Shown here: positions 4,218-61,052 of the stretch, one piece after another
Numbering within the stretch: the first letter of the stretch is position 1
Layout of the letters: each line of letters starts with the position of its first letter
Assembly (NCBI GenBank): GCA_035632635.1
Contig: DASQGL010000068.1
Coordinates: forward strand, 10,895 to 74,894
Length of the DNA stretch: 64,000 nt
Reading direction: 5' to 3'
From: Candidatus Limnocylindrales bacterium
GTDB taxonomy: Bacteria; Chloroflexota; Dormibacteria; CF-121
Translations under genes and position numbers: made by a program
Notes under the pieces: model-generated
The model's input: only the letters and a program-made list of their open reading frames with translations
The model's database searches: none
Told to the model about the DNA's origin: nothing

Positions 4218-4235
4218 GGTCCATATACTGCTGAC

Positions 4236-5066
4236 GTGGTCCGGATGGTCACGGATTCCACCGCGGACATCCCCAAGGATGTCCAGCAGGCGCTCGACAT
4301 CACCGTGGTCCCCCTCAACGTCCACATCGGTGAGGAGGTCTTCCGAGACCGCGTCGACCTGAGCGGCGATGAATTCTTTCGACGGCTGGGGCAATCCGCG
4401 GCCCTGCCCAAGACATCGCAGCCGTCGGTCGGGGCCTTCGAGGAAACCTATCGAGGGCTGCTCGCGCAGGGGCACGACGTCGTGGCCGTGCTCCTCTCAG
4501 CCAGGGTCTCCGGGACGTACAACGCCGGGCTGACCGCGGCGCAGGCCGTGGCGCCTGATCGCATCGAGGTGATCGACTCGCAGATGGCGTCGATGGCGCT
4601 CGGCTTCCTGGTGCTCGAGGGTGCCCGGCTGGCGCGCGCCGGCAAGAGCCGCCGTGAGGTGGCCGACCACGTCCGGGCGCTGGTGCCCAAGGCGCGGGTG
4701 ATCGCGGCCATCGACACGCTGACCTACCTGCAGCGCGGCGGCCGGATCGGCAAGGCGCAGGCCCTCCTCGGCTCGCTGCTCAACGTCAAGCCGCTGATCA
4801 CCCTGAAGGACGGAGAGGTGCAGCCGCTCGGTCGCGCCCGCAGCCGCGCCCAGGCGCTCGACCGCCTGGTGCAGTTGCTGGAGCGGGACGGGGCGATCAC
4901 CCACCTCGCCATCCTGCACGGCGGTGCCCGGGCCGATGCCGAGCGCCTGCGCGAGCGGGTCGCGCCGCACTATCCTGGGCTCGACATCTCGTTTGCGGAG
5001 ACCGGCCCGGTGCTCGGGACGCACACCGGTCCCGGGGTGATCGGGTTCACCTACCTCGTGAAGTAG
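4236..5066 (+). CDS. DegV family fatty-acid-binding protein
   Basis: 276 aa with a DegV-like N-terminus (VTDSTADIP...). GTG at 4236; an alternative ATG lies at 4245. A TATACT hexamer sits 6 nt upstream of the GTG. Confidence 0.85.
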   Translation: MVRMVTDSTADIPKDVQQALDITVVPLNVHIGEEVFRDRVDLSGDEFFRRLGQSAALPKTSQPSVGAFEETYRGLLAQGHDVVAVLLSARVSGTYNAGLTAAQAVAPDRIEVIDSQMASMALGFLVLEGARLARAGKSRREVADHVRALVPKARVIAAIDTLTYLQRGGRIGKAQALLGSLLNVKPLITLKDGEVQPLGRARSRAQALDRLVQLLERDGAITHLAILHGGARADAERLRERVAPHYPGLDISFAETGPVLGTHTGPGVIGFTYLVK

Positions 5067-8359: not shown

Positions 8360-8829
8360 ACATCCAGGAAGCCGTCGACGGACTCGAGTACCTGATCGGG
8401 CACAGCCGGCAGATCCCGCTGACCCGAACGGTGGTCATCGACCAGGAGGAAGCGCTGCAGCTGATCGACAACCTGCGGCTCGCGCTTCCCGATGAGATCA
8501 AGCAGGCGCGCTGGACTCTGCAGGAGCAGCAGCGCCTGCTGTCGGAGGCGCAGGCGGAAGCGGCTCGCATGATCAGCCAGGCGGGCGAGCGGGCGCAGAC
8601 CATGATCGGGCAGCAGGAGCTGTCGCGCCGCGCGGAAAGACAGGCGGAGACGATCTTGCGCGAGGCCACCGCGCGGGCCGACGAGGTCCGGCGGGCGGCG
8701 GATGCGTATGCCTGGGAGGTCATGCAGAACCTGGAGGCGCAGCTGCTCAAGACGGTGGCCACCGTGAAGAAGGGCGTCGAAGCGCTCCGGAAGCCCGAGC
8801 GCGTCTCCGAGCTCGCCCAAAGACGGTAG
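8356..8829 (+). CDS. Hypothetical coiled-coil protein (ATP-synthase-b/FliH-like helical pattern)
   Basis: 157 aa, predicted highly helical with Q/E/A/R-rich heptads. 4-nt overlap with coaD. Function unknown. Confidence 0.5.
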   Translation: MNIQEAVDGLEYLIGHSRQIPLTRTVVIDQEEALQLIDNLRLALPDEIKQARWTLQEQQRLLSEAQAEAARMISQAGERAQTMIGQQELSRRAERQAETILREATARADEVRRAADAYAWEVMQNLEAQLLKTVATVKKGVEALRKPERVSELAQRR

Positions 8830-8945
8830 TCACCCGGCTTTTCGGCAGGCTTCGGGGATTCAGCCCCGCGGCCCGCCAGTTCCTGCTCTTCTCCTTCCTC
8901 ACCTTCACGGCCGGGACGATCTTCAGCCTGGTCTTCAACCTCTAT

Positions 8946-10055
8946 ATGAGTGCGCTCGGCTTTCGCAACGACGTCATCGGTATCTTCAACGCCCTGCCGG
9001 CGGTCGGCCTGATCGCGGTCGGGCTTCCCGTCGCCGCGCTGGCCGACCGGATCGGATACCGCGTCTTCGTACTCGGCTCGAGCGGCGTCGCCACGCTCGC
9101 CGCCATCGTCCTGGCGTCCTGTGGCGCCCGGCTGGCGGCGGTGCTCGCCGCGGGCACGTTCGCGCTCGGCCTGACCGTTCTCCAGCTGCTCGGCGTCCCG
9201 CTGCTCGCCCAGCTCAGCTCCCCGTCCGAGCGCGTGCTCCTCTTCTCGGTGAACGAGGCGCTCGCCTGGGCCGGCACGCTGTTGGGCAACCTGATCGGCG
9301 GCGCCCTGCCCGAAGCGGCCGCCCGCGTCACGCACGAGCCGGCGGCCTCGACGTCCTCGCTGCGCGCCGCCTTCGTGGCGACGGCGGCCCTCCTGCTGAT
9401 CGCGCTGCCGATCGGGGTGCGGCTGTCGGCGGCCGGCGGGCTCCGGCCCTCCGAGGTCTTTCCCCTGCGCGACATGGTGCGGGTCGATCTCGGGCGATTC
9501 GCACGGCTCCTGGGGCCGCAGTTGTTGCTCGGGCTGGCCGCCGGGATGCTGCTGAACTTCATCCAGCTGTTCCTGGCCCAGCGCTTCCACCTCGGCCCGG
9601 GGCCGATCGGGTTGGTCCTCGCCGGCGTGGCGGCGCTGACCGCGGCCACGTCGCTGATCGCCCCGGCGGTGAGCCGGCTGCTGGGGCTGCCGCGCGCGAT
9701 CGGCATCGCTCAGGTCCTCGGTTTCCCGCTCGTGCTCGGACTGGCGTTCGCGATGAACCTGCCGCTCGCGGTTGCCATCCTGGCGCTCCGGCAGGTCATC
9801 CTCAACCTGCAGTCGCCGCTCGTCCTCGCCTTCGGGATGAGCTACGTGGAGGCGCGGCAGCGAGCCCGGCTGGCGATCGCCCAGGAGGTGGCCTTCGGCA
9901 TCGGGTTCGGCGGGATCGGCCCGCTGCTCAGCGGGGTCCTCCAGGTCCGAGGTGGCTATCAGCTCGCCTTCAGCGTCAGCGCCGCCTTCTACCTGCTCGC
10001 CGGCCTGAGCTTTCTCGCGATCTTCGGCCGCGCTCAGCCGGCGCGACGCGCCTGA
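8946..10055 (+). CDS. MFS transporter. The listed start is the first canonical start; TM1 is encoded upstream from about 8829.
   Basis: 12-TM-like hydrophobic pattern. The upstream in-frame stretch encodes FLLFSFLTFTAGTIFSLVFNLY (a TM1-like segment) with no ATG/GTG/TTG. Confidence 0.7.
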   Translation: MSALGFRNDVIGIFNALPAVGLIAVGLPVAALADRIGYRVFVLGSSGVATLAAIVLASCGARLAAVLAAGTFALGLTVLQLLGVPLLAQLSSPSERVLLFSVNEALAWAGTLLGNLIGGALPEAAARVTHEPAASTSSLRAAFVATAALLLIALPIGVRLSAAGGLRPSEVFPLRDMVRVDLGRFARLLGPQLLLGLAAGMLLNFIQLFLAQRFHLGPGPIGLVLAGVAALTAATSLIAPAVSRLLGLPRAIGIAQVLGFPLVLGLAFAMNLPLAVAILALRQVILNLQSPLVLAFGMSYVEARQRARLAIAQEVAFGIGFGGIGPLLSGVLQVRGGYQLAFSVSAAFYLLAGLSFLAIFGRAQPARRA

Positions 10056-10083
10056 CCGGCGGGATCCTGCCCGCCGTGCCCGT

Positions 10084-10089
10084 ATAATG
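10084..10089 (+). promoter_or_regulatory. TATAAT -10 hexamer 8 nt upstream of the rpmF ATG (leaderless-type geometry)
   Basis: An exact consensus hexamer in a 70% GC background; no SD between it and the ATG. Confidence 0.35.
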
Positions 10090-10097
10090 GGGCCCCT

Positions 10098-10274
10098 ATG
10101 GCCCTCCCCAAGACTCGCTACGCCCATGCGCGCCAGGGCGAACGCCGCGCCCACCTGGCGTTGAAGCGCCCGCGACTCGTCGACTGCCCGCAGTGCCATC
10201 GGCCGAAGCGGCCGCACACGATCTGCCGGAACTGCGGGTATTACGACGGTCGCGAGGTCATCAAGACCGACTAG
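10098..10274 (+). CDS. rpmF: 50S ribosomal protein L32
   Basis: 58 aa, below the ORF-track size cutoff: MALPKTRYAHARQGERRAHLALKRPRLVDCPQCHRPKRPHTICRNCGYYDGREVIKTD. A TATAAT hexamer sits 8 nt upstream of the ATG. Confidence 0.85.
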   Translation: MALPKTRYAHARQGERRAHLALKRPRLVDCPQCHRPKRPHTICRNCGYYDGREVIKTD

Positions 10275-10331
10275 CCGGATCCCGCCACGGTCGCCTTCCT
10301 GTTTCCGGGTCAGGGCGCCCAGTTCGTCGGG

Positions 10332-11216
10332 ATGGCGCGCGACCTGATCGAGCAGGACCCAGACGCCGCCGCGCTGCTGGCTGCGGCAGAATCCCGAATT
10401 CAGCTCCCGCTGCGCCGGCTCATGCTCGAGGGACCGGAGGAGCTGCTCCAGCGGACCGAGCACGCGCAGCCGGCGATCGTCTTCCACTCTCTGGCCCTGC
10501 TCGCCAGGCTGACCGCCGCGGGATGCCGGCCGGATGCCGTCGCCGGGCACAGCCTGGGAGAGTTCGCCGCGCTCGACGCCGCCGGCGGACTCGAGGCGCT
10601 GCCGGCGATCGAGGCGGTCGCGGCGCGCGGCCGGGCGATGGCGGCGGCGAGTTCCCCGGGCAGCGGCATGGCGGCCGTGCTCGGCCTGCCCGACGAGGTC
10701 GTCGAGCAGATCCTGGCCGGGCAGGCCGGTCACGACCTCGTGGTGGCCGCGAACTTCAACGCACCGGGGCAGGTCGTCATCTCGGGGACGGACGCCGGGA
10801 TCCGGGCGGTGACGCCGGCGCTCGAGAGGGCGGGTGCCAAGCGGATCCTGCGGCTCTCGGTCAGCGCCGCGTTCCACTCGCCCCTGATGGAGCAGGCCGC
10901 CTCGGCCTTCCGGCAGGCCTGGGCGGGGATCCCCCTCGTCCGGCTGACGGTTCCCCAGGTCTTCAACGCGGATGCGCAGGTTCACAAGGAGGCCGCGGAA
11001 GTCCGCGACCTGCTGGTCCGCCAGCTCACCGGACCGGTCCGCTGGACCGCCTGCGTCAGGCGGCTGTGGGGGCTGGGCGTGCGGACCTTCGTCGAAATCG
11101 GCCCCAAGCGGACGCTCACCCCGCTGGTCAAGAAGATCGAGCCCGCGGCGTCCACCTACAACGTCGAGGACCTGCACAGCCTGGACGCATTCGTGGAGAT
11201 GGCCCGTGCCAGCTGA
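10332..11216 (+). CDS. fabD: Malonyl-CoA:ACP transacylase. 10332 is the first canonical start; the conserved N-terminus begins about 10287.
   Basis: GHSLGEFAA active-site motif. The VAFLFPGQGAQ motif lies upstream of the ATG, in frame with and directly after the rpmF TAG stop. Confidence 0.85.
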   Translation: MARDLIEQDPDAAALLAAAESRIQLPLRRLMLEGPEELLQRTEHAQPAIVFHSLALLARLTAAGCRPDAVAGHSLGEFAALDAAGGLEALPAIEAVAARGRAMAAASSPGSGMAAVLGLPDEVVEQILAGQAGHDLVVAANFNAPGQVVISGTDAGIRAVTPALERAGAKRILRLSVSAAFHSPLMEQAASAFRQAWAGIPLVRLTVPQVFNADAQVHKEAAEVRDLLVRQLTGPVRWTACVRRLWGLGVRTFVEIGPKRTLTPLVKKIEPAASTYNVEDLHSLDAFVEMARAS

Positions 11217-11958
11217 GCCGCTCCATGGCCAGGTCGCGCTCGTCACCGGGGCGAGCCGGGGTATCGGGCGTGCCATCGCCCTCGCGCTCGCCGCGGCCGG
11301 GTCCAACGTCGCGATCGGCTATCGAAGCCGCGCCGATGAGGCCGAGCGCGTGTTGCGGCAGGTGGCGGAGCTGGGCCGGGAGGCCATCATCCTGCCCGGC
11401 GACGTCGCCGATCCGGTGGTCCCGGCCGCGCTGGTGGAAGCGGCGGTCAAGCGGTGGGGGCGGCTCGACGTGCTGGTCAACAACGCCGGCATCACGCGCG
11501 ACAACCTGGTCATGCGGATGAGCGAGGCCGACTGGGACGCGGTGATCGCGACCAACCTCAAGGCGCCGTTTCTGGCCTGCAAGGCGGCGCTGAGGCCCAT
11601 GCTCAAGCAGCGCTATGGCCGGATCGTCAACGTGTCCTCACTGGCGGGGGTGGCCGGCAACGCGGGGCAGGCGAATTACAGCGCGGCCAAGGCCGGCTTG
11701 ATCGGCCTGACGCGGGCGCTCGCCCGCGAGGTCGGCTCCCGCAACATCACGGTCAACGCGGTCGCCCCCGGATTCATCGAGACCGAGATCCTGAGTGGGC
11801 TGCCGGCCGACATCCTGGAGCGGGCCAGGCAGGCCGCCGCCATCCCCCGGCTGGGCACCCCCGAGGACGTGGCCCACGCCGTCCTCTTCCTGGCCTCGCC
11901 GCAGGCGTCCTACATTACGGGCCAGGTGCTCGGGATCGACGGCGGGCTCCCGATGTGA
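11206..11958 (+). CDS. fabG: 3-oxoacyl-ACP reductase
   Basis: GTG at 11206 gives (M)[20 protein letters not shown], plus NAG and YSAAK SDR motifs. Overlaps the fabD stop by 11 nt. Confidence 0.85.
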
Positions 11959-12008
11959 GGGAGTCCAGCAGCTTTCGCCCCGGTGCTCGCGAGCGCCTGC
12001 GCCCCCGC

Positions 12009-12014
12009 TACAAT
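12009..12014 (+). promoter_or_regulatory. TACAAT -10 candidate for an internal acpP promoter
   Basis: Lies 32 nt upstream of the acpP ATG and is followed by an AAGGGG SD. Confidence 0.3.
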
Positions 12015-12046
12015 CGTTCCGCGCCATCAAACGAAAGGGGATCGGC

Positions 12047-12295
12047 ATGGACGGAAGCAATTACGAGAAGTTCAAGGGCATCGTCGCCGAGCAGCTCGGC
12101 GTCGAGCCCGAGCAGGTCACGCCCGACGCATCGTTCGTAGACGACTTGAACGCCGACTCGCTCGATCTCGTCGAGCTGATCATGGCGTTCGAGGAAGAAT
12201 ACAGTTTGGAGATCTCTGACGAGGACGCCGAAAAGATTCAGACCGTCGGGCAAGCCTGGGACTACGTCCAGGAAAAGCTCGGCATCACCACCTAA
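12047..12295 (+). CDS. acpP: Acyl carrier protein
   Basis: 82 aa with the [11 protein letters not shown] (DSL) motif. SD AAGGGG 7 nt upstream and a TACAAT -10 at 12009. Confidence 0.92.
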
Positions 12296-12464
12296 GTCAC
12301 CGAAGCCGCCCGCGGCCGAGGGAGAAGACCCGCTCGCCAATCTGCAGCGAACGCTGAGGGTCCGCTTCCACGACCAGTCGCTGCTGCGGCAGGCGCTGAC
12401 GCATCGTTCCTACAACAACGAGCATCCGGAGAGCGGGCTCCAGGACAATGAGCGCCTCGAGTAC

Positions 12465-13067
12465 TTGGGAGACGCCGTGCTCGAGCTGATCGCGGCCGAG
12501 CACCTGTTTCACACCTACCAGACGTCTGACGAGGGCGAACTGACCCGGCTCCGGGCCTCGGTTGTCAACACGAAGAGCCTGGCGCGCCTCGCGTCCCGGT
12601 TGAGCCTGGGTGACTACCTGCTGCTCGGCAAGGGCGCCCACAAGACGGGCGCGCGATCGCTGCAGTCGATCCTGGCGAACACGTTCGAGGCGGTCATCGG
12701 CGCCATCTTCCTCGACCAGGGGTACCGCTCCGCCTACCGCCTGTTCAGCCGGAGCCTGATCGATGTCCAGGCCTGGCCGGATGACAACTACAAGGGCAGG
12801 CTGCAGGAGGTGACCCAGGAGCGGTTCCTGACGACCCCGCAGTACGACATCGTCTCCGCCTCCGGCCCGGGGCACCGCCGCGAGTACGTGGCCGAGGTCA
12901 CCTTCGGCGGCGCGACCCAGGGTACCGGCCGGGGCCGGACCAAGCGCGCGGCCGAGCAGCTGGCGGCGCGCGAGGCGCTCGCCGGCCTGGGTGCGCTGGA
13001 GCCGGTGCCGCACACGGCCGATGACGCGGTCCTCGACGCGGTCGCCGGCCAACCCGCTCGGAGTTAG
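12465..13067 (+). CDS. rnc: Ribonuclease III. 12465 (TTG) is the first canonical start; the true N-terminus is upstream, about 12342–12351.
   Basis: The ERLEYLGDA signature and dsRBD are present. The conserved FHDQSLLRQALTHRSY...ERLEY is encoded upstream of the TTG, with no canonical start between the TGA at 12177 and 12465. Confidence 0.85.
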   Translation: MGDAVLELIAAEHLFHTYQTSDEGELTRLRASVVNTKSLARLASRLSLGDYLLLGKGAHKTGARSLQSILANTFEAVIGAIFLDQGYRSAYRLFSRSLIDVQAWPDDNYKGRLQEVTQERFLTTPQYDIVSASGPGHRREYVAEVTFGGATQGTGRGRTKRAAEQLAAREALAGLGALEPVPHTADDAVLDAVAGQPARS

Positions 13068-33772: not shown

Positions 33773-34942
33773 ATGACGCAGGCCCGCCGTTCGCCAGTGC
33801 GACTCGCGCTCCTGGGCGCGACCGGCTCGATCGGCCGCCAGGTGTGCGACCTGGTCGATCGACATCCGGATCGATTCGTCCTGCACGCCCTGATCGCCGG
33901 GCACGATGAGACGGCCTTGCGCGAGCTGGCCCGGCGCCATCCGCAGGCCCATTCCCTGCTGGCCTACCCACCTGCCGGCTCCGAGGTGGATGCCGCTCGC
34001 GCGATCGCCGAGACGGTGCAGGATCCCGAGGTCGACGTCGTGATCGTGGCGGCTGCCGGCGCGACCGCGCTGGCGCCGACGCTCGCCGCCCTGGATGCGG
34101 GCAAGGACGTCGCGCTCGCCACCAAAGAGGTCCTGGTCATGGCGGGTGAGCTGGTTCGCGATCGGATGCGGCGTCATGGGAGCCGCCTGCTGCCCATCGA
34201 CAGCGAGCACAGTGCGATCTGGCAGTGCCTGTGGGGCGAGCGCCACGAGAGCGTGCGCCGGCTGATCCTGACGGGATCGGGTGGCCCGTTTCTGCGGCGC
34301 CCGCTCGACACCCTCAGCGCGGCGACGATCACGGACGCCCTGGCCCACCCACGCTGGAAGATGGGCCGCAAGATCACCATCGACTCGGCCACGATGATGA
34401 ACAAGGGCCTGGAGGTGATCGAGGCTCATTTCCTGTTCGACATCGCCTACGAGGCAATCGACGTAGTGGTGCATCCGGAGAGTGTCGTGCACTCGATGGT
34501 CGAGTTCCGCGACGGGAGCGTGAAGGCCCAGCTGGGCGTCGCCGACATGCACCTGCCGATTGCCGTCGCCCTCGCCTATCCGGAGCGGCTCGACGCGGTC
34601 GTGCCGGCTCCCGACCTCGGCGCGCTGAACCGGTTGACCTTCGAAGCCCTCGATGGGCAGCGGTTTCCCGCGGTCTCACTGGCGCGCGACGCCGGCCGGC
34701 GGGGCGGGAGCGCCCCCGCGGTGCTCAACGCGGCGAACGAAGCCGCCGTCGCCCTCTTCCTGAGCGGCCGGATCCGCTTTCCCGACATCGTCTCCCTGGT
34801 GGAGGCGGCGCTTTCCGCCATGCCGGCGGCCACGGAGGACTCCCTCGACGCCCTGGTGAACGCCGACACATGGGCTCGCCGGCACGTCCGCGAACTCGCC
34901 GGCGTCTTGACGCCGCCGCCGGCGGGTAAGCTGCCCCTATGA
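33773..34942 (+). CDS. dxr: 1-deoxy-D-xylulose 5-phosphate reductoisomerase
   Basis: [16 protein letters not shown] motif and LATKEVLV. Confidence 0.95.
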
Positions 34943-44513: not shown

Positions 44514-44533
44514 CCGGTAAGCTGGGCAGTCGT

Positions 44534-45802
44534 ATGCGCGTCGCTCAACGTCCCCGTGGGACGCAGGACATCCTGCCGGCCGAGCAACCGTACTGGCTCG
44601 ACATGACGCGCACCGCCGAGGCGCTCGCCGCGGCGGGGGGCTACCAGCGGATCGATACGCCGATCTTCGAGGCCACCGAGTTGTTCGTCCGCACCGCCGG
44701 CGATACCTCCGACCTCGTGACCAAGGAGATGTACACGTTCGTCGATCGCGGCGGCCGCTCGATGACCCTGCGCCCGGAGGGAACGGCGCCGGTGGTCCGG
44801 GCGTATTTCGACGCGGGCTTTCACCGTGAGCGCCAGCCGGTGCGCCTCTACTACGTCGGCCCGTTCTTCCGCTATGACCGGCCCCAGGCTGGCCGCTTTC
44901 GACAGTTTCATCAGTTCGGCGTCGAGGTGATCGGCGATCCGAGTCCGGACCTCGATGTGGAGGTCATCGCGCTCGGTTGGGATTGGTACGCGCAGCTGGG
45001 CATCCGGGGTGTGAGCCTGCAACTGAACAGCATCGGCGACGCCGAATGCCGGCCGCGCTACCGCGACGCGCTGCGCCAGTACTACCAGCCGTACCTGCAG
45101 ACGCTCGCGGCGGAGGACCGAGCGCGCTTTGAGCGCAATCCCCTGCGACTCCTCGATTCCAAGGATCCGGATTCCGCGGCCCTCCACGCGGGGTCGCCGC
45201 AAACCCTCGATTTCCTGTGTCCGGCATGCCGCGAGGCGTTCGAACGGGTGCAGGCCGGGTTGCGAGGGCAGGGGATCCCGTTCACGATCAACCCGCGTCT
45301 GGTCCGGGGTCTGGATTACTACACGCGCACCGCGTTCGAGTACTGGCACGAGAGCCTGAGCGGGGCGCAGAATTCGCTGGGCGGCGGAGGCCGGTATGAC
45401 GGCCTGGCCCAGGATCTCGGCTATCCGTCGACCCCGGGCGTCGGTTTCGCGCTGGGACTCGAACGGACAGCCAGCATCCTGCGAGCGGCCGGGTCGGTGC
45501 CGGGCGTGTACGGTATCGCGGTCGAGGCCGCGGCGCGCCCGGCGCTTCGGGCACTCACGCGCGAGCTGCGCGAGCGGGGAGTCGCCGTCGTGACGGATCT
45601 GACGGATGCCCGCCTGGACGCCAAGCTGAAGCGCGCCGTCCGGCTGCGGATGGCGCTGGCATTGCTGGTCGGCCTGCAGGAGGACGGGGCGGACCGCGTG
45701 ACGGTCAGAGATCTACGGGTGAAGAGCCAGCGCTCGGTTCCGCGAACGCAGCTGCTCGACAGCGTCCTTCAGGCATTGCGCCCGCGGCCGGTGCCGGCAT
45801 GA
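44534..45802 (+). CDS. hisS: Histidyl-tRNA synthetase
   Basis: GTQDILP, MTLRPEGTA and FRYDRPQAGR motifs. Confidence 0.95.
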   Translation: MRVAQRPRGTQDILPAEQPYWLDMTRTAEALAAAGGYQRIDTPIFEATELFVRTAGDTSDLVTKEMYTFVDRGGRSMTLRPEGTAPVVRAYFDAGFHRERQPVRLYYVGPFFRYDRPQAGRFRQFHQFGVEVIGDPSPDLDVEVIALGWDWYAQLGIRGVSLQLNSIGDAECRPRYRDALRQYYQPYLQTLAAEDRARFERNPLRLLDSKDPDSAALHAGSPQTLDFLCPACREAFERVQAGLRGQGIPFTINPRLVRGLDYYTRTAFEYWHESLSGAQNSLGGGGRYDGLAQDLGYPSTPGVGFALGLERTASILRAAGSVPGVYGIAVEAAARPALRALTRELRERGVAVVTDLTDARLDAKLKRAVRLRMALALLVGLQEDGADRVTVRDLRVKSQRSVPRTQLLDSVLQALRPRPVPA

Positions 45803-49362: not shown

Positions 49363-49856
49363 AGGAGAGCCACAGCCGGGCGCACAGCGCGCCAACCGGG
49401 CATGTCCAAACCCCCGCCGCCGCCTCCGCCGCGCTCATCACCGAGATGAAGCTGCCCGCGGTCGAGGACTACATCCTGGCGGCGAAGCGGGCAGCCGGCG
49501 CCCTCGGCCTCGTGGTCGGCTTCTCGCTGCAGGAGATCGATGAACTGAACATCGCCGTGACCCAGGCTTGCGAGAACGGGATCGCGGCGGCCAACGAGCA
49601 ATGGGGTCGCGGCAACGGACAGCTCAAACTGCTCTTCAAGACCCAGCCTCGCCGCCTCGAGGTCGAGGTGCGCAGCGTTCCGCCCCGGGCGGTGGAGCTG
49701 CAGCAGGCGGTTCGCCAGGCCCGCCGCGAACAGGAATTCGACTACGAGACGGTTGGCGTCAATATGATCCGTCTCTTCGTCGATGAGCTCCGGTACCATC
49801 GGGACCATCAGACGGGAGTCATGCGGATGAGGATGGTCAAATACCTGATCGAGTAG
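49359..49856 (+). CDS. RsbW/SpoIIAB-like anti-sigma factor with degenerate ATP-binding motifs
   Basis: The N-terminus aligns with RsbW (EDYILAAKRAAGALG...DELNIAVTQACENGI). The DxGxG and GxGL boxes are not recognisable. AAGGAG SD 8 nt upstream. Confidence 0.7.
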   Translation: MKESHSRAHSAPTGHVQTPAAASAALITEMKLPAVEDYILAAKRAAGALGLVVGFSLQEIDELNIAVTQACENGIAAANEQWGRGNGQLKLLFKTQPRRLEVEVRSVPPRAVELQQAVRQARREQEFDYETVGVNMIRLFVDELRYHRDHQTGVMRMRMVKYLIE

Positions 49857-49984
49857 CCCGTCCGGCTTCGCAACCGACCGTTCGTCCCAACCGCGATCTC
49901 GCCCGCCGGCTTTTCCTCAAGTACCAGAAGACCAGGGATCCGAAGGTCCGCCAGCAGCTGGTCGAGCTCTTCAACAACCTGGTC

Positions 49985-60663: not shown

Positions 60664-61013
60664 TGGCCGAGCGGGGGCTCGGGTCGGTCAAGGTGGCCAA
60701 CGAGGTCATCGCCCACATTGCCGCGCTCACCGCCGGCCAGGTCCAGGGCATCGCCGGCCTGTACCATGCCGGGGCCCGGGATGGACACCGGGCGCTGCCG
60801 CCCCAGGCCGGCTACAAGGGCGTGCGCGTCGACATGACCAACGACAGCTTGCGCCTCGAACTGTTCCTGATCGTCGATCACTCCGCCCACGTCCCGACGG
60901 TGGCCGCCGAGGTTCAGCGCCAGGTGGCGGATGCGATCGACAAGATGCTGGGCATCGAGGTCCGCCAGGTGGATGTCTTCATCGGCGATGTGCGTTTTCT
61001 CGGAGATCAGTAG
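60663..61013 (+). CDS. Asp23/Gls24 family protein (second paralog, YqhY-like slot upstream of nusB)
   Basis: 116 aa with Asp23-family pattern (VANEVIAHIAALTAGQVQGIAGL...). Confidence 0.75.
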   Translation: MAERGLGSVKVANEVIAHIAALTAGQVQGIAGLYHAGARDGHRALPPQAGYKGVRVDMTNDSLRLELFLIVDHSAHVPTVAAEVQRQVADAIDKMLGIEVRQVDVFIGDVRFLGDQ

Positions 61014-61052
61014 ACGGGCAGGCGACACCTGGCCCGGGAGCTCGCGCTGAAG

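Follow-up and report, generated by a model that had tools for sequence, protein, structure and literature searches.

How is a protein translated when its conserved N-terminus is encoded upstream of every canonical start codon in its frame? The question is raised by fabD, the gene for malonyl-CoA:acyl carrier protein (ACP) transacylase, in a 64 000-nt stretch of contig DASQGL010000068.1 (the window). The stretch derives from a soil bacterium of Dormibacterota-like affiliation, whose nearest genomes are metagenome-assembled genomes (MAGs) that carry the label Candidatus Dormibacterota or 'Chloroflexi bacterium', the latter in older records. In the window, fabD lies directly behind rpmF, which encodes ribosomal protein L32. 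Comparison with related junctions makes it likely that this fabD is a complete, functional gene started at the near-cognate codon ACG 10287, probably in coupling with the termination of rpmF translation.

The rpmF–fabD junction

The features of the junction are as follows.

10083–10088, forward strand: TATAAT, a −10-like box 9 nt before the rpmF ATG (consensus resemblance only)
10098–10274, forward strand: rpmF (ribosomal protein L32, 58 aa); C-terminal residues ...REVIKTD, stop TAG 10272–10274
10275–10286, forward strand: 12-nt spacer between the rpmF stop and the ACG, holding an out-of-frame ATC at 10279–10281
10287–10289, forward strand: ACG, proposed fabD initiation codon, with no other near-cognate codon from the TAG to CTG 10299
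10287–11216, forward strand: fabD (malonyl-CoA:ACP transacylase, about 309 aa), with the stop TGA at 11214–11216
10299–10301, forward strand: CTG (Leu of FLFPGQG), an alternative near-cognate start judged unlikely, at a column that is not conserved
10302–10316, forward strand: FPGQG motif of FabD, upstream of the first canonical start
10332–10334, forward strand: ATG, the first canonical start in the fabD frame, chosen by gene callers and giving truncated models of 288–295 aa

Downstream of the rpmF TAG, the same frame continues as CCG GAT CCC GCC ACG GTC GCC TTC CTG TTT CCG GGT CAG GGC GCC CAG TTC GTC GGG ATG, which is translated as PDPATVAFLFPGQGAQFVGM, and no ATG, GTG or TTG occurs in the fabD frame between that TAG and ATG 10332. 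The sequence-only reading that drew attention to the locus had described exactly this arrangement, with L32 ending at the TAG, the FabD N-terminus following in frame and the first ATG placed after the FPGQG motif, and the sequence bears it out. A run of 19 codons lacking a canonical start has a chance of about 0.4 and is in itself not improbable. What counts is that, as judged by alignment, a conserved and catalytically required FabD N-terminus precedes the first canonical start.

The identity of both genes is well supported. L32 matches the Pfam family Ribosomal_L32p (PF01783) with E = 3.5e-20 over profile positions 1–55 of 56. The fabD open reading frame (ORF) scores 266.3 bits against the TIGR00128 equivalog (cutoff 260.9), its residues 6–290 corresponding to profile positions 3–288 of 290, and it also matches Pfam Acyl_transf_1. 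FabD structures in the PDB are matched down to E = 2.7e-58, with structure residues 3–4 aligned to ORF residues 6–7. In the structural alignments, ACG 10287 coincides with Met1 of Thermus thermophilus FabD (2cuy_A), and the E. coli enzyme begins two codons earlier. Both FLFPGQGAQ (10296–10322) and, further downstream, the active-site Ser motif GHSLGE (within AGHSLGEF) align to the solved enzymes. The FPGQG segment, the oxyanion-hole Gln region of FabD, is part of the protein only if translation begins upstream of ATG 10332, and an in-frame TAG stands five codons upstream of VAF.

The anomaly might alternatively be an artefact, such as a sequencing or assembly indel that displaced ATC 10279; the gene might be a decaying pseudogene, or FabD might be made only from ATG 10332. 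The out-of-frame ATC at 10279–10281 would be brought into frame by one extra base, and ATG 10332 is the position that gene callers pick. Nevertheless, these explanations are highly improbable. An assembly from another read set (L161, a Logan assembly of run SRR6788486) matches window positions 9123–11465 at 99.79 % identity, with 5 single-nucleotide differences and 0 gaps over 2343 nt, and has the identical rpmF–fabD junction, GACCGACTAGCCGGATCCCGCCACGGTCGCCTTCCTGTTTCCGGG. Sequence error, which had been considered from the outset, is excluded because this independent assembly agrees; the independent Logan assemblies L161, L162 and L171 rule out an assembly indel as the cause. Furthermore, a canonical start is lacking in all 26 relatives bar one (L104) and in 111 of 120 database models. 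The pseudogene alternative is opposed by an intact ORF that scores above the fabD equivalog cutoff, and a protein begun at ATG 10332 would be devoid of FPGQG, as is the 294-aa model produced when a gene caller placed the L161 start there. Initiation at ATC 10279 followed by a frameshift was also considered and rejected, as that frame closes after 22 codons and neither a slippery site nor a structure is present.

The start column in related junctions

The junction was compared in 28 rows, made up of the window, its re-assembly L161 and 26 relatives, and the spacers fell into 22 distinct sequences; L161 and the 26 relatives together are referred to below as the 27 related junctions. Relatives were drawn from a genome collection (L001, L002), from a metagenome scan with L32 (L081–L104) and from the closest FabD homologues (L172, L173 and L174, with 75, 71 and 67 % FabD identity to the window, L172 being the closest relative). 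A scan of genome contigs with FabD returned mostly Bacteroidota matches through the shared word QGAQFVGM and only two useful relatives, and an exact look-up of the window L32 gave no match.

With the exception of the more distant L104, which has an ATG, the stretch from the rpmF stop to FPGQG is free of ATG, GTG and TTG in all 28 rows. Exactly one candidate codon is present per row, located 5–6 codons before the F of FPGQG, and this codon is ATC in 20 loci, ATT in 3 and ACG in the window and L161 as well as, separately, in L173. An ATG at the orthologous position, which would have spoken for an ordinary start, is thus confined to L104. The column, five codons ahead of the F of FPGQG in the window, can be read directly from the closest sequences: the window has ACG GTC GCC TTC CTG TTT, L172 has ATC CTC GCC TTC CTC TTC and L173 has ACG CTC GCC TTC CTC TTT. 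In L173, fabD lies in a different frame from rpmF, and the start column holds ACG with no ATH codon (H being A, C or T). The occurrence of ATC in L172 and of ACG in L173 at the same column supports the earlier proposal that initiation takes place at a codon other than ATG, GTG or TTG close to the TAG, with ACG 10287 as the favoured candidate.

The two sides of the candidate codon evolve differently. Upstream of it the sequence is variable, with indels that are not multiples of three and a stop-to-start spacer of 2–17 nt in the relatives, while on the downstream side the length does not change and substitutions are for the most part synonymous (ACC/ACA, GTC/GTT). This change from a variable, indel-prone to a fixed-length sequence therefore places the coding boundary at the candidate codon. 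Thirteen of the 28 rows, namely the window, L161 and 11 relatives, have fabD in the frame of rpmF (frame 0), and in these the rpmF stop precedes the candidate by 3 codons in most cases, by 2 in L172 and by 4 in the window. Since the stop is so near, no other start is possible in the frame-0 loci. In the window, the out-of-frame ATC 10279–10281 sits in CCGGATCC, resembling the CCG ATC of relatives, and is one base off the fabD frame; it may be the remnant of an ancestral ATC start that was displaced by a net insertion of 5 nt, with ACG taking over.

The frame relationship also bears on read-through or recoding of the rpmF TAG, which had been offered as an alternative and would yield an L32–FabD fusion with FabD lacking a start of its own. 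Such a fusion would agree with the window and 12 of the 27 related junctions, where fabD follows the TAG directly in the rpmF frame. In the other 15, however, fabD is in frame +1 (5 junctions) or +2 (10 junctions), and rpmF ends in TAA in L002 and L174. Read-through is excluded as a conserved mechanism because the fabD frame varies and these two rpmF genes end in TAA. TAG also ends 12 of 33 confident genes in the window at normal C-termini, and L32 carrying a 33-kDa extension could hardly be expected to fit into the ribosome. As an explanation for the window itself, read-through is hardly credible and the least probable of those considered here.

A further alternative is initiation at CTG 10299, which would give a protein beginning MFPGQGAQ with a shortened first β-strand and MFPGQGAQFVGMAR as its N-terminal peptide. 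CTG is a stronger near-cognate start than ACG in E. coli (bioRxiv 10.1101/063800), it is found at this position in most relatives as in the window, and two NCBI models of relatives (P0100 and P0108) begin MFPGQG. On the other hand, the column is CTC in L172, L173 and L174 and CTT in L002. The preceding (T/L)(V/L)AF is conserved, and it appears to be translated because its changes are synonymous and its length is fixed; residues before the Leu are likewise included in all solved FabDs and in TIGR00128. On balance, a start at CTG 10299 is unlikely.

The effect of the missing start on annotation was assessed in the 120 closest FabD cluster representatives (61–100 % identity) from a collection of 5.8 billion proteins. 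Most of these models, 111 in number, start at an internal Met (M[AGT]RDL, 288–295 aa) and hence are without FPGQG. Five begin M[AT]L(D/A)(G/D)TAFLFPGQG and represent an ATG-bearing branch, two are the NCBI models called at the Leu codon, and two have artefactual extensions. As read from these models and junctions, the lack of a canonical fabD start is a clade-wide trait that yields systematically truncated annotations. One model, P0095, begins MCIRDR... and resembles translated non-genomic sequence at a contig end.

The fabD copy of L174 (L174 6855–10912) has FPSQG in place of FPGQG, and behind it lie an unknown ORF and a DDE transposase instead of fabG and acpP; this copy may be rearranged or degenerating.

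Other genes of the window without a canonical start

The approximately 57 stop-to-stop ORFs of the window were scanned against NCBIfam and Pfam. For most genes, the beginning of the family profile coincides with a canonical start, and the 33 confident genes start with ATG (23), GTG (9) or TTG (1) and stop with TGA (18), TAG (12) or TAA (3). Five genes are exceptions: fabD, nusB, a major facilitator superfamily (MFS) transporter gene, rnc and a sigma factor gene. Each of the five immediately follows another gene, the distance ranging from −7 to about +46 nt.

61011–61016, forward strand: Asp23 stop TAG (61011–61013) and ACG 61014–61016, the proposed nusB start, with GGAG 8 nt upstream
8823–8825, forward strand: ACG, proposed start of the MFS transporter gene (8823–10055), overlapping the upstream stop TAG 8827–8829 as ACGGTAG
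12296–12464, forward strand: 5′ part of rnc (RNase III), encoding the conserved N-terminus DPLANLQRTLRVRFHDQSLLRQALTHRS...NERLEY; start candidates are CTG 12342, ACG 12351 or an upstream codon overlapping acpP
49841–49984, forward strand: 5′ part of the gene for a SigB/F-like sigma factor, whose first canonical GTG, 49985, is inside region 2

The geometry of the Asp23–nusB boundary had been recognized as the same as that of rpmF–fabD, and closer inspection agrees. The frame continues directly after the Asp23 TAG with ACG GGC AGG CGA CAC CTG (TGRRHLARELALKV), and the first canonical start, GTG 61053, lies past the conserved Arg-rich N-terminus. Nine orthologous nusB loci have ATG GGx CGx (L164–L170) or GTG GGT AG(G/A) (L163 and L175), encoding MGRRHLARELALKV, and ACG 61014 falls exactly in their ATG/GTG start column. 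In the closest relative, L175 (Asp23 91 % identical), the GTG lies 9 nt after the TAG. The Asp23–nusB junction of the window is reproduced exactly by the independent assembly L171. Two Asp23–NusB fusions found in the database (P0060 and P0081), in which an Asp23 N-terminal part is joined to unrelated or NusB C-terminal sequence, look like chimeric assemblies and were discarded.

The MFS gene has its first canonical ATG, 8946, inside the first transmembrane helix. Homology to a 412-aa MFS protein of L174 starts 33 codons upstream of this ATG, where L174 reads ATG GTC... and the window reads ACG GTA GTC, and full-length MFS homologues among 1.84 billion representatives align from residues 3–10 of a query that starts at 8823. 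The homologues place the beginning of the protein about 34–40 codons before ATG 8946, and ACG 8823 is the only plausible codon there.

The situation at rnc is more complex. No ATG, GTG or TTG is present in any frame from the acpP stop (12295) to TTG 12465 within the catalytic ERLEYLGD motif, and a canonical start is likewise absent from 17 related loci (from L001, L002 and L081–L104). Position 1 of the TIGR02191 profile falls on CTG 12342. This codon was rejected as a conserved start, being CTC or CTT in 8 of the 17 loci, which have ACG three codons later; the resulting complementary pattern in the LQRTL segment (CTG/ACC versus CTC/ACG) is suggestive, though it may reflect only 3–5 independent lineages. 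Residues upstream of CTG 12342 (D/E-D/E-P-L-x-x) show a third-position substitution pattern and seem to be translated. The frame relation between acpP and rnc is invariant in the 17 loci, and length changes amount to only 9 nt (+9 in the window, −9 in L104), which suggests a start overlapping acpP or an unusual coupling. A +1 frameshift from acpP into rnc would agree with the preserved frame relation and with length changes restricted to multiples of three, but the acpP stop context is not conserved (ACC ACC TGA/TAA versus AGC TAA) and offers no re-pairing.

For the sigma factor, the start candidates are ATA 49841, a rare codon (0.03 % of codons), and GTT 49880. Relatives start (M/V)RPNR, with ATG or GTG, where the window has GTT 49880. 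ATA 49841 overlaps the end of the upstream gene and is created by a rare AAA Lys codon there. That upstream gene resembles an anti-sigma kinase. Database models of close relatives of the sigma factor have very heterogeneous N-termini, with lengths of 214–276 aa.

Among internal codons of the window, ACG accounts for 1.96 %, ATC for 3.97 % and CTG for 5.84 %. Because ACG is so infrequent, its presence at three orthologous start columns is unlikely to be a random draw, this estimate having been made after the fact. One explanation would be a dedicated mechanism that makes ACG efficient, which might convert it to AUG by C-to-U editing, as in plant organelles, or supply an additional, ACG-reading initiator tRNA. 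In its favour, three genes within 64 kb have ACG in their start column even though CTG and ATC are 2–3 times commoner codons, and ACG performs poorly with the standard machinery (bioRxiv 10.1101/063800). Such a mechanism is nonetheless very unlikely: none is known in bacteria, the top 30 of 162 literature matches on ACG starts come from eukaryotes, viruses or organelles with no bacterial example among them, and the relatives manage with ATC or ATT, which require nothing special. Neither a tRNA gene nor an editing enzyme was found within the 64-kb window.

A broader and rather doubtful possibility is that start-codon selection is relaxed or re-tuned throughout the lineage, with several per cent of operon-internal genes starting at ATC, ATT, ACG, ATA or CTG and with ACG serving as a regular initiator in the window species. 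Its basis could be an altered discrimination by initiation factor 3 (IF3) or by the initiator tRNA, an ACG-reading initiator tRNA, or an obligatory low-match 70S reinitiation.

Initiation at fabD and comparison with known systems

In the favoured explanation of near-cognate initiation at fabD, ACG 10287, 12 nt past the rpmF stop, would presumably be decoded as (f)Met by initiator tRNA, with (f)Met-VAFLFPGQG, that is, (f)M-VAFLFPGQGAQFVGMAR, as the predicted N-terminus. In E. coli, ACG-initiated GFP carries N-terminal Met with a trace of Thr (bioRxiv 10.1101/063800). The occurrence of ATC or ATT at the same position in the wider Dormibacterota-like clade suggests that the weak non-AUG start is old and conserved and that the sublineage of the window swapped ATH for ACG. 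Ribosomes would be delivered by translational coupling, reinitiating a few nucleotides downstream after translating the abundantly read rpmF, and the weak start codon would keep the yield of FabD at a small, constant fraction of that of L32. Local reinitiation by terminating ribosomes is proposed because the start always lies 0–17 nt from the upstream stop and because no structure, Rfam element or consistent Shine-Dalgarno (SD) motif accompanies it. Folding at the junction is not unusual (minimum free energy z-score −0.25 for 10245–10335), the single Rfam hit in 9900–12600 is a chance match, and the spacers of the window and its relatives share no consistent SD, L173 having AGGA at −4 and other relatives AGG or nothing. 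The stop-to-restart distance is 12 nt for fabD and 0 nt for nusB, and the MFS gene has a 7-nt overlap, all within about 20 nt. Termination–reinitiation is efficient only over short distances, and 0–17 nt is within its workable range (PMC10666635).

Several observations weigh against initiation at the ACG. Initiation in E. coli reaches about 1–2 % of the AUG level at AUA, AUC, AUU and CUG and 0.1–1 % at other codons, including ACG, which makes ACG a very poor initiator, about 3–10 times weaker than AUC (bioRxiv 10.1101/063800). Reinitiation also falls steeply with distance, by 40–80 % at +14 nt in tested E. coli pairs (PMC10666635). The SD upstream of the fabD ACG is a mere GGA trinucleotide, 7 nt upstream, in contrast to the GGAG at −8 of nusB. 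The spacer of the window was found only in the window and its 99.8 % twin, so the coding boundary cannot be mapped by conservation within the species. Finally, some cases in the window are not yet accounted for by near-cognate starts, since the rnc start shows no single conserved near-cognate codon across the 17 loci, and none is conserved at one sigma factor column among relatives.

Weak start codons as such are familiar. In E. coli and many other bacteria, the weak starts of infC (AUU/AUA) and pcnB (AUU) keep output low, and the infC start is part of the IF3 autoregulatory loop. This AUH class is the one to which the ATC and ATT of most fabD relatives belong. For fabD, however, no autoregulatory logic is evident, and the start lies 2–17 nt behind a highly translated ribosomal-protein gene with no consistent SD. 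Initiation at ACG occurs in eukaryotic viruses and cells, as in VP2 of adeno-associated virus, and editing of ACG to AUG occurs in plant organelles. These examples share with fabD an ACG at the start position of a conserved protein, but they are driven by eukaryotic scanning and eIF2 or by C-to-U editing, neither of which is known in bacteria.

A closer parallel is provided by Deinococcus, in which N-terminal proteomics identified conserved ATC (dnaA), CTG (rpsL) and ATA (infC) starts on housekeeping genes (PMC2830850), in a high-GC lineage rich in leaderless mRNAs (PMC4007540). Conserved near-cognate starts of essential genes, recognized by a conserved N-terminus that precedes any canonical start, and heterogeneous mis-annotation across the lineage are common to both. 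The present case differs in that it concerns fabD in more than 100 sequence clusters of another phylum, and in that the window appears to use ACG, a codon outside the set examined in PMC2830850. Described cases of termination–reinitiation (PMC6728339, PMC10666635) resemble the proposed fabD start in restarting a few nucleotides from the upstream stop, and fabD appears to have no strong ribosome-binding site of its own; they differ in that they restart at ATG or GTG, mostly in 4-nt or 1-nt overlaps, whereas ACG or ATC is found here.

A near-cognate start is thus not a new category, being known from infC, pcnB and Deinococcus. New features are the gene concerned, fabD, the spread of the trait through a phylum-level clade of uncultured bacteria, the use of ACG and the density of such genes (5 of about 57 in 64 kb). 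We found no report of a housekeeping gene that retains an AUH start throughout a phylum-level clade, nor of a sublineage with ACG at the start position of three or more genes, and a literature search combining Dormibacterota with start codon returned nothing.

The practical consequence concerns annotation. The catalytic N-terminus of FabD is absent from 111 of the 120 closest public models, and truncation also affects rnc, nusB, the MFS gene and the sigma factor gene of this genome. Metabolic reconstructions, structure predictions and family alignments of Dormibacterota-like MAGs inherit the truncated proteins, and gene callers limited to ATG, GTG and TTG cannot mend them. If start selection were relaxed lineage-wide, standard gene callers would systematically truncate or miss proteins of this uncultured phylum. 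With regard to expression, the E. coli output of such codons, about 0.1–2 % of AUG, implies either that a very low FabD output is wanted or that the lineage initiates differently. A weak start abutting the stop of a highly translated gene would be a simple means of setting a large expression ratio within one transcript.

The surrounding gene order is partly that of E. coli, in which the cluster is rpmF-plsX-fabHDG-acpP and rpmF is probably co-transcribed with fatty-acid synthesis genes. Linkage of rpmF to fatty-acid genes and the order fabD-fabG-acpP are kept, but plsX and fabH are missing between rpmF and fabD, so that fabD abuts rpmF, and rnc directly follows acpP. The fabG start is an ordinary GTG (11206) overlapping the fabD stop. 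The position of the TATAAT box upstream of rpmF suggests that the predicted rpmF-fabD-fabG-acpP-rnc transcript is leaderless or near-leaderless, and the same layout of TATAAT, 9 nt and ATG is also seen at rpmF in the relative L001.

Similar elements occur at many genes of the window that seem to head an operon, where a −10-like hexamer (TAGAAT, TATACT, TATAAT or TAAGCT) lies 6–10 nt before the start and no SD is present.

540–555, 4221–4236, 10083–10098, 34925–34939 and 44516–44534: −10-like hexamer sites

An SD of at least 4 nt at a usable spacing was observed in only about a third of the inspected starts, and the sequence pattern suggests that leaderless mRNAs are frequent in the window.

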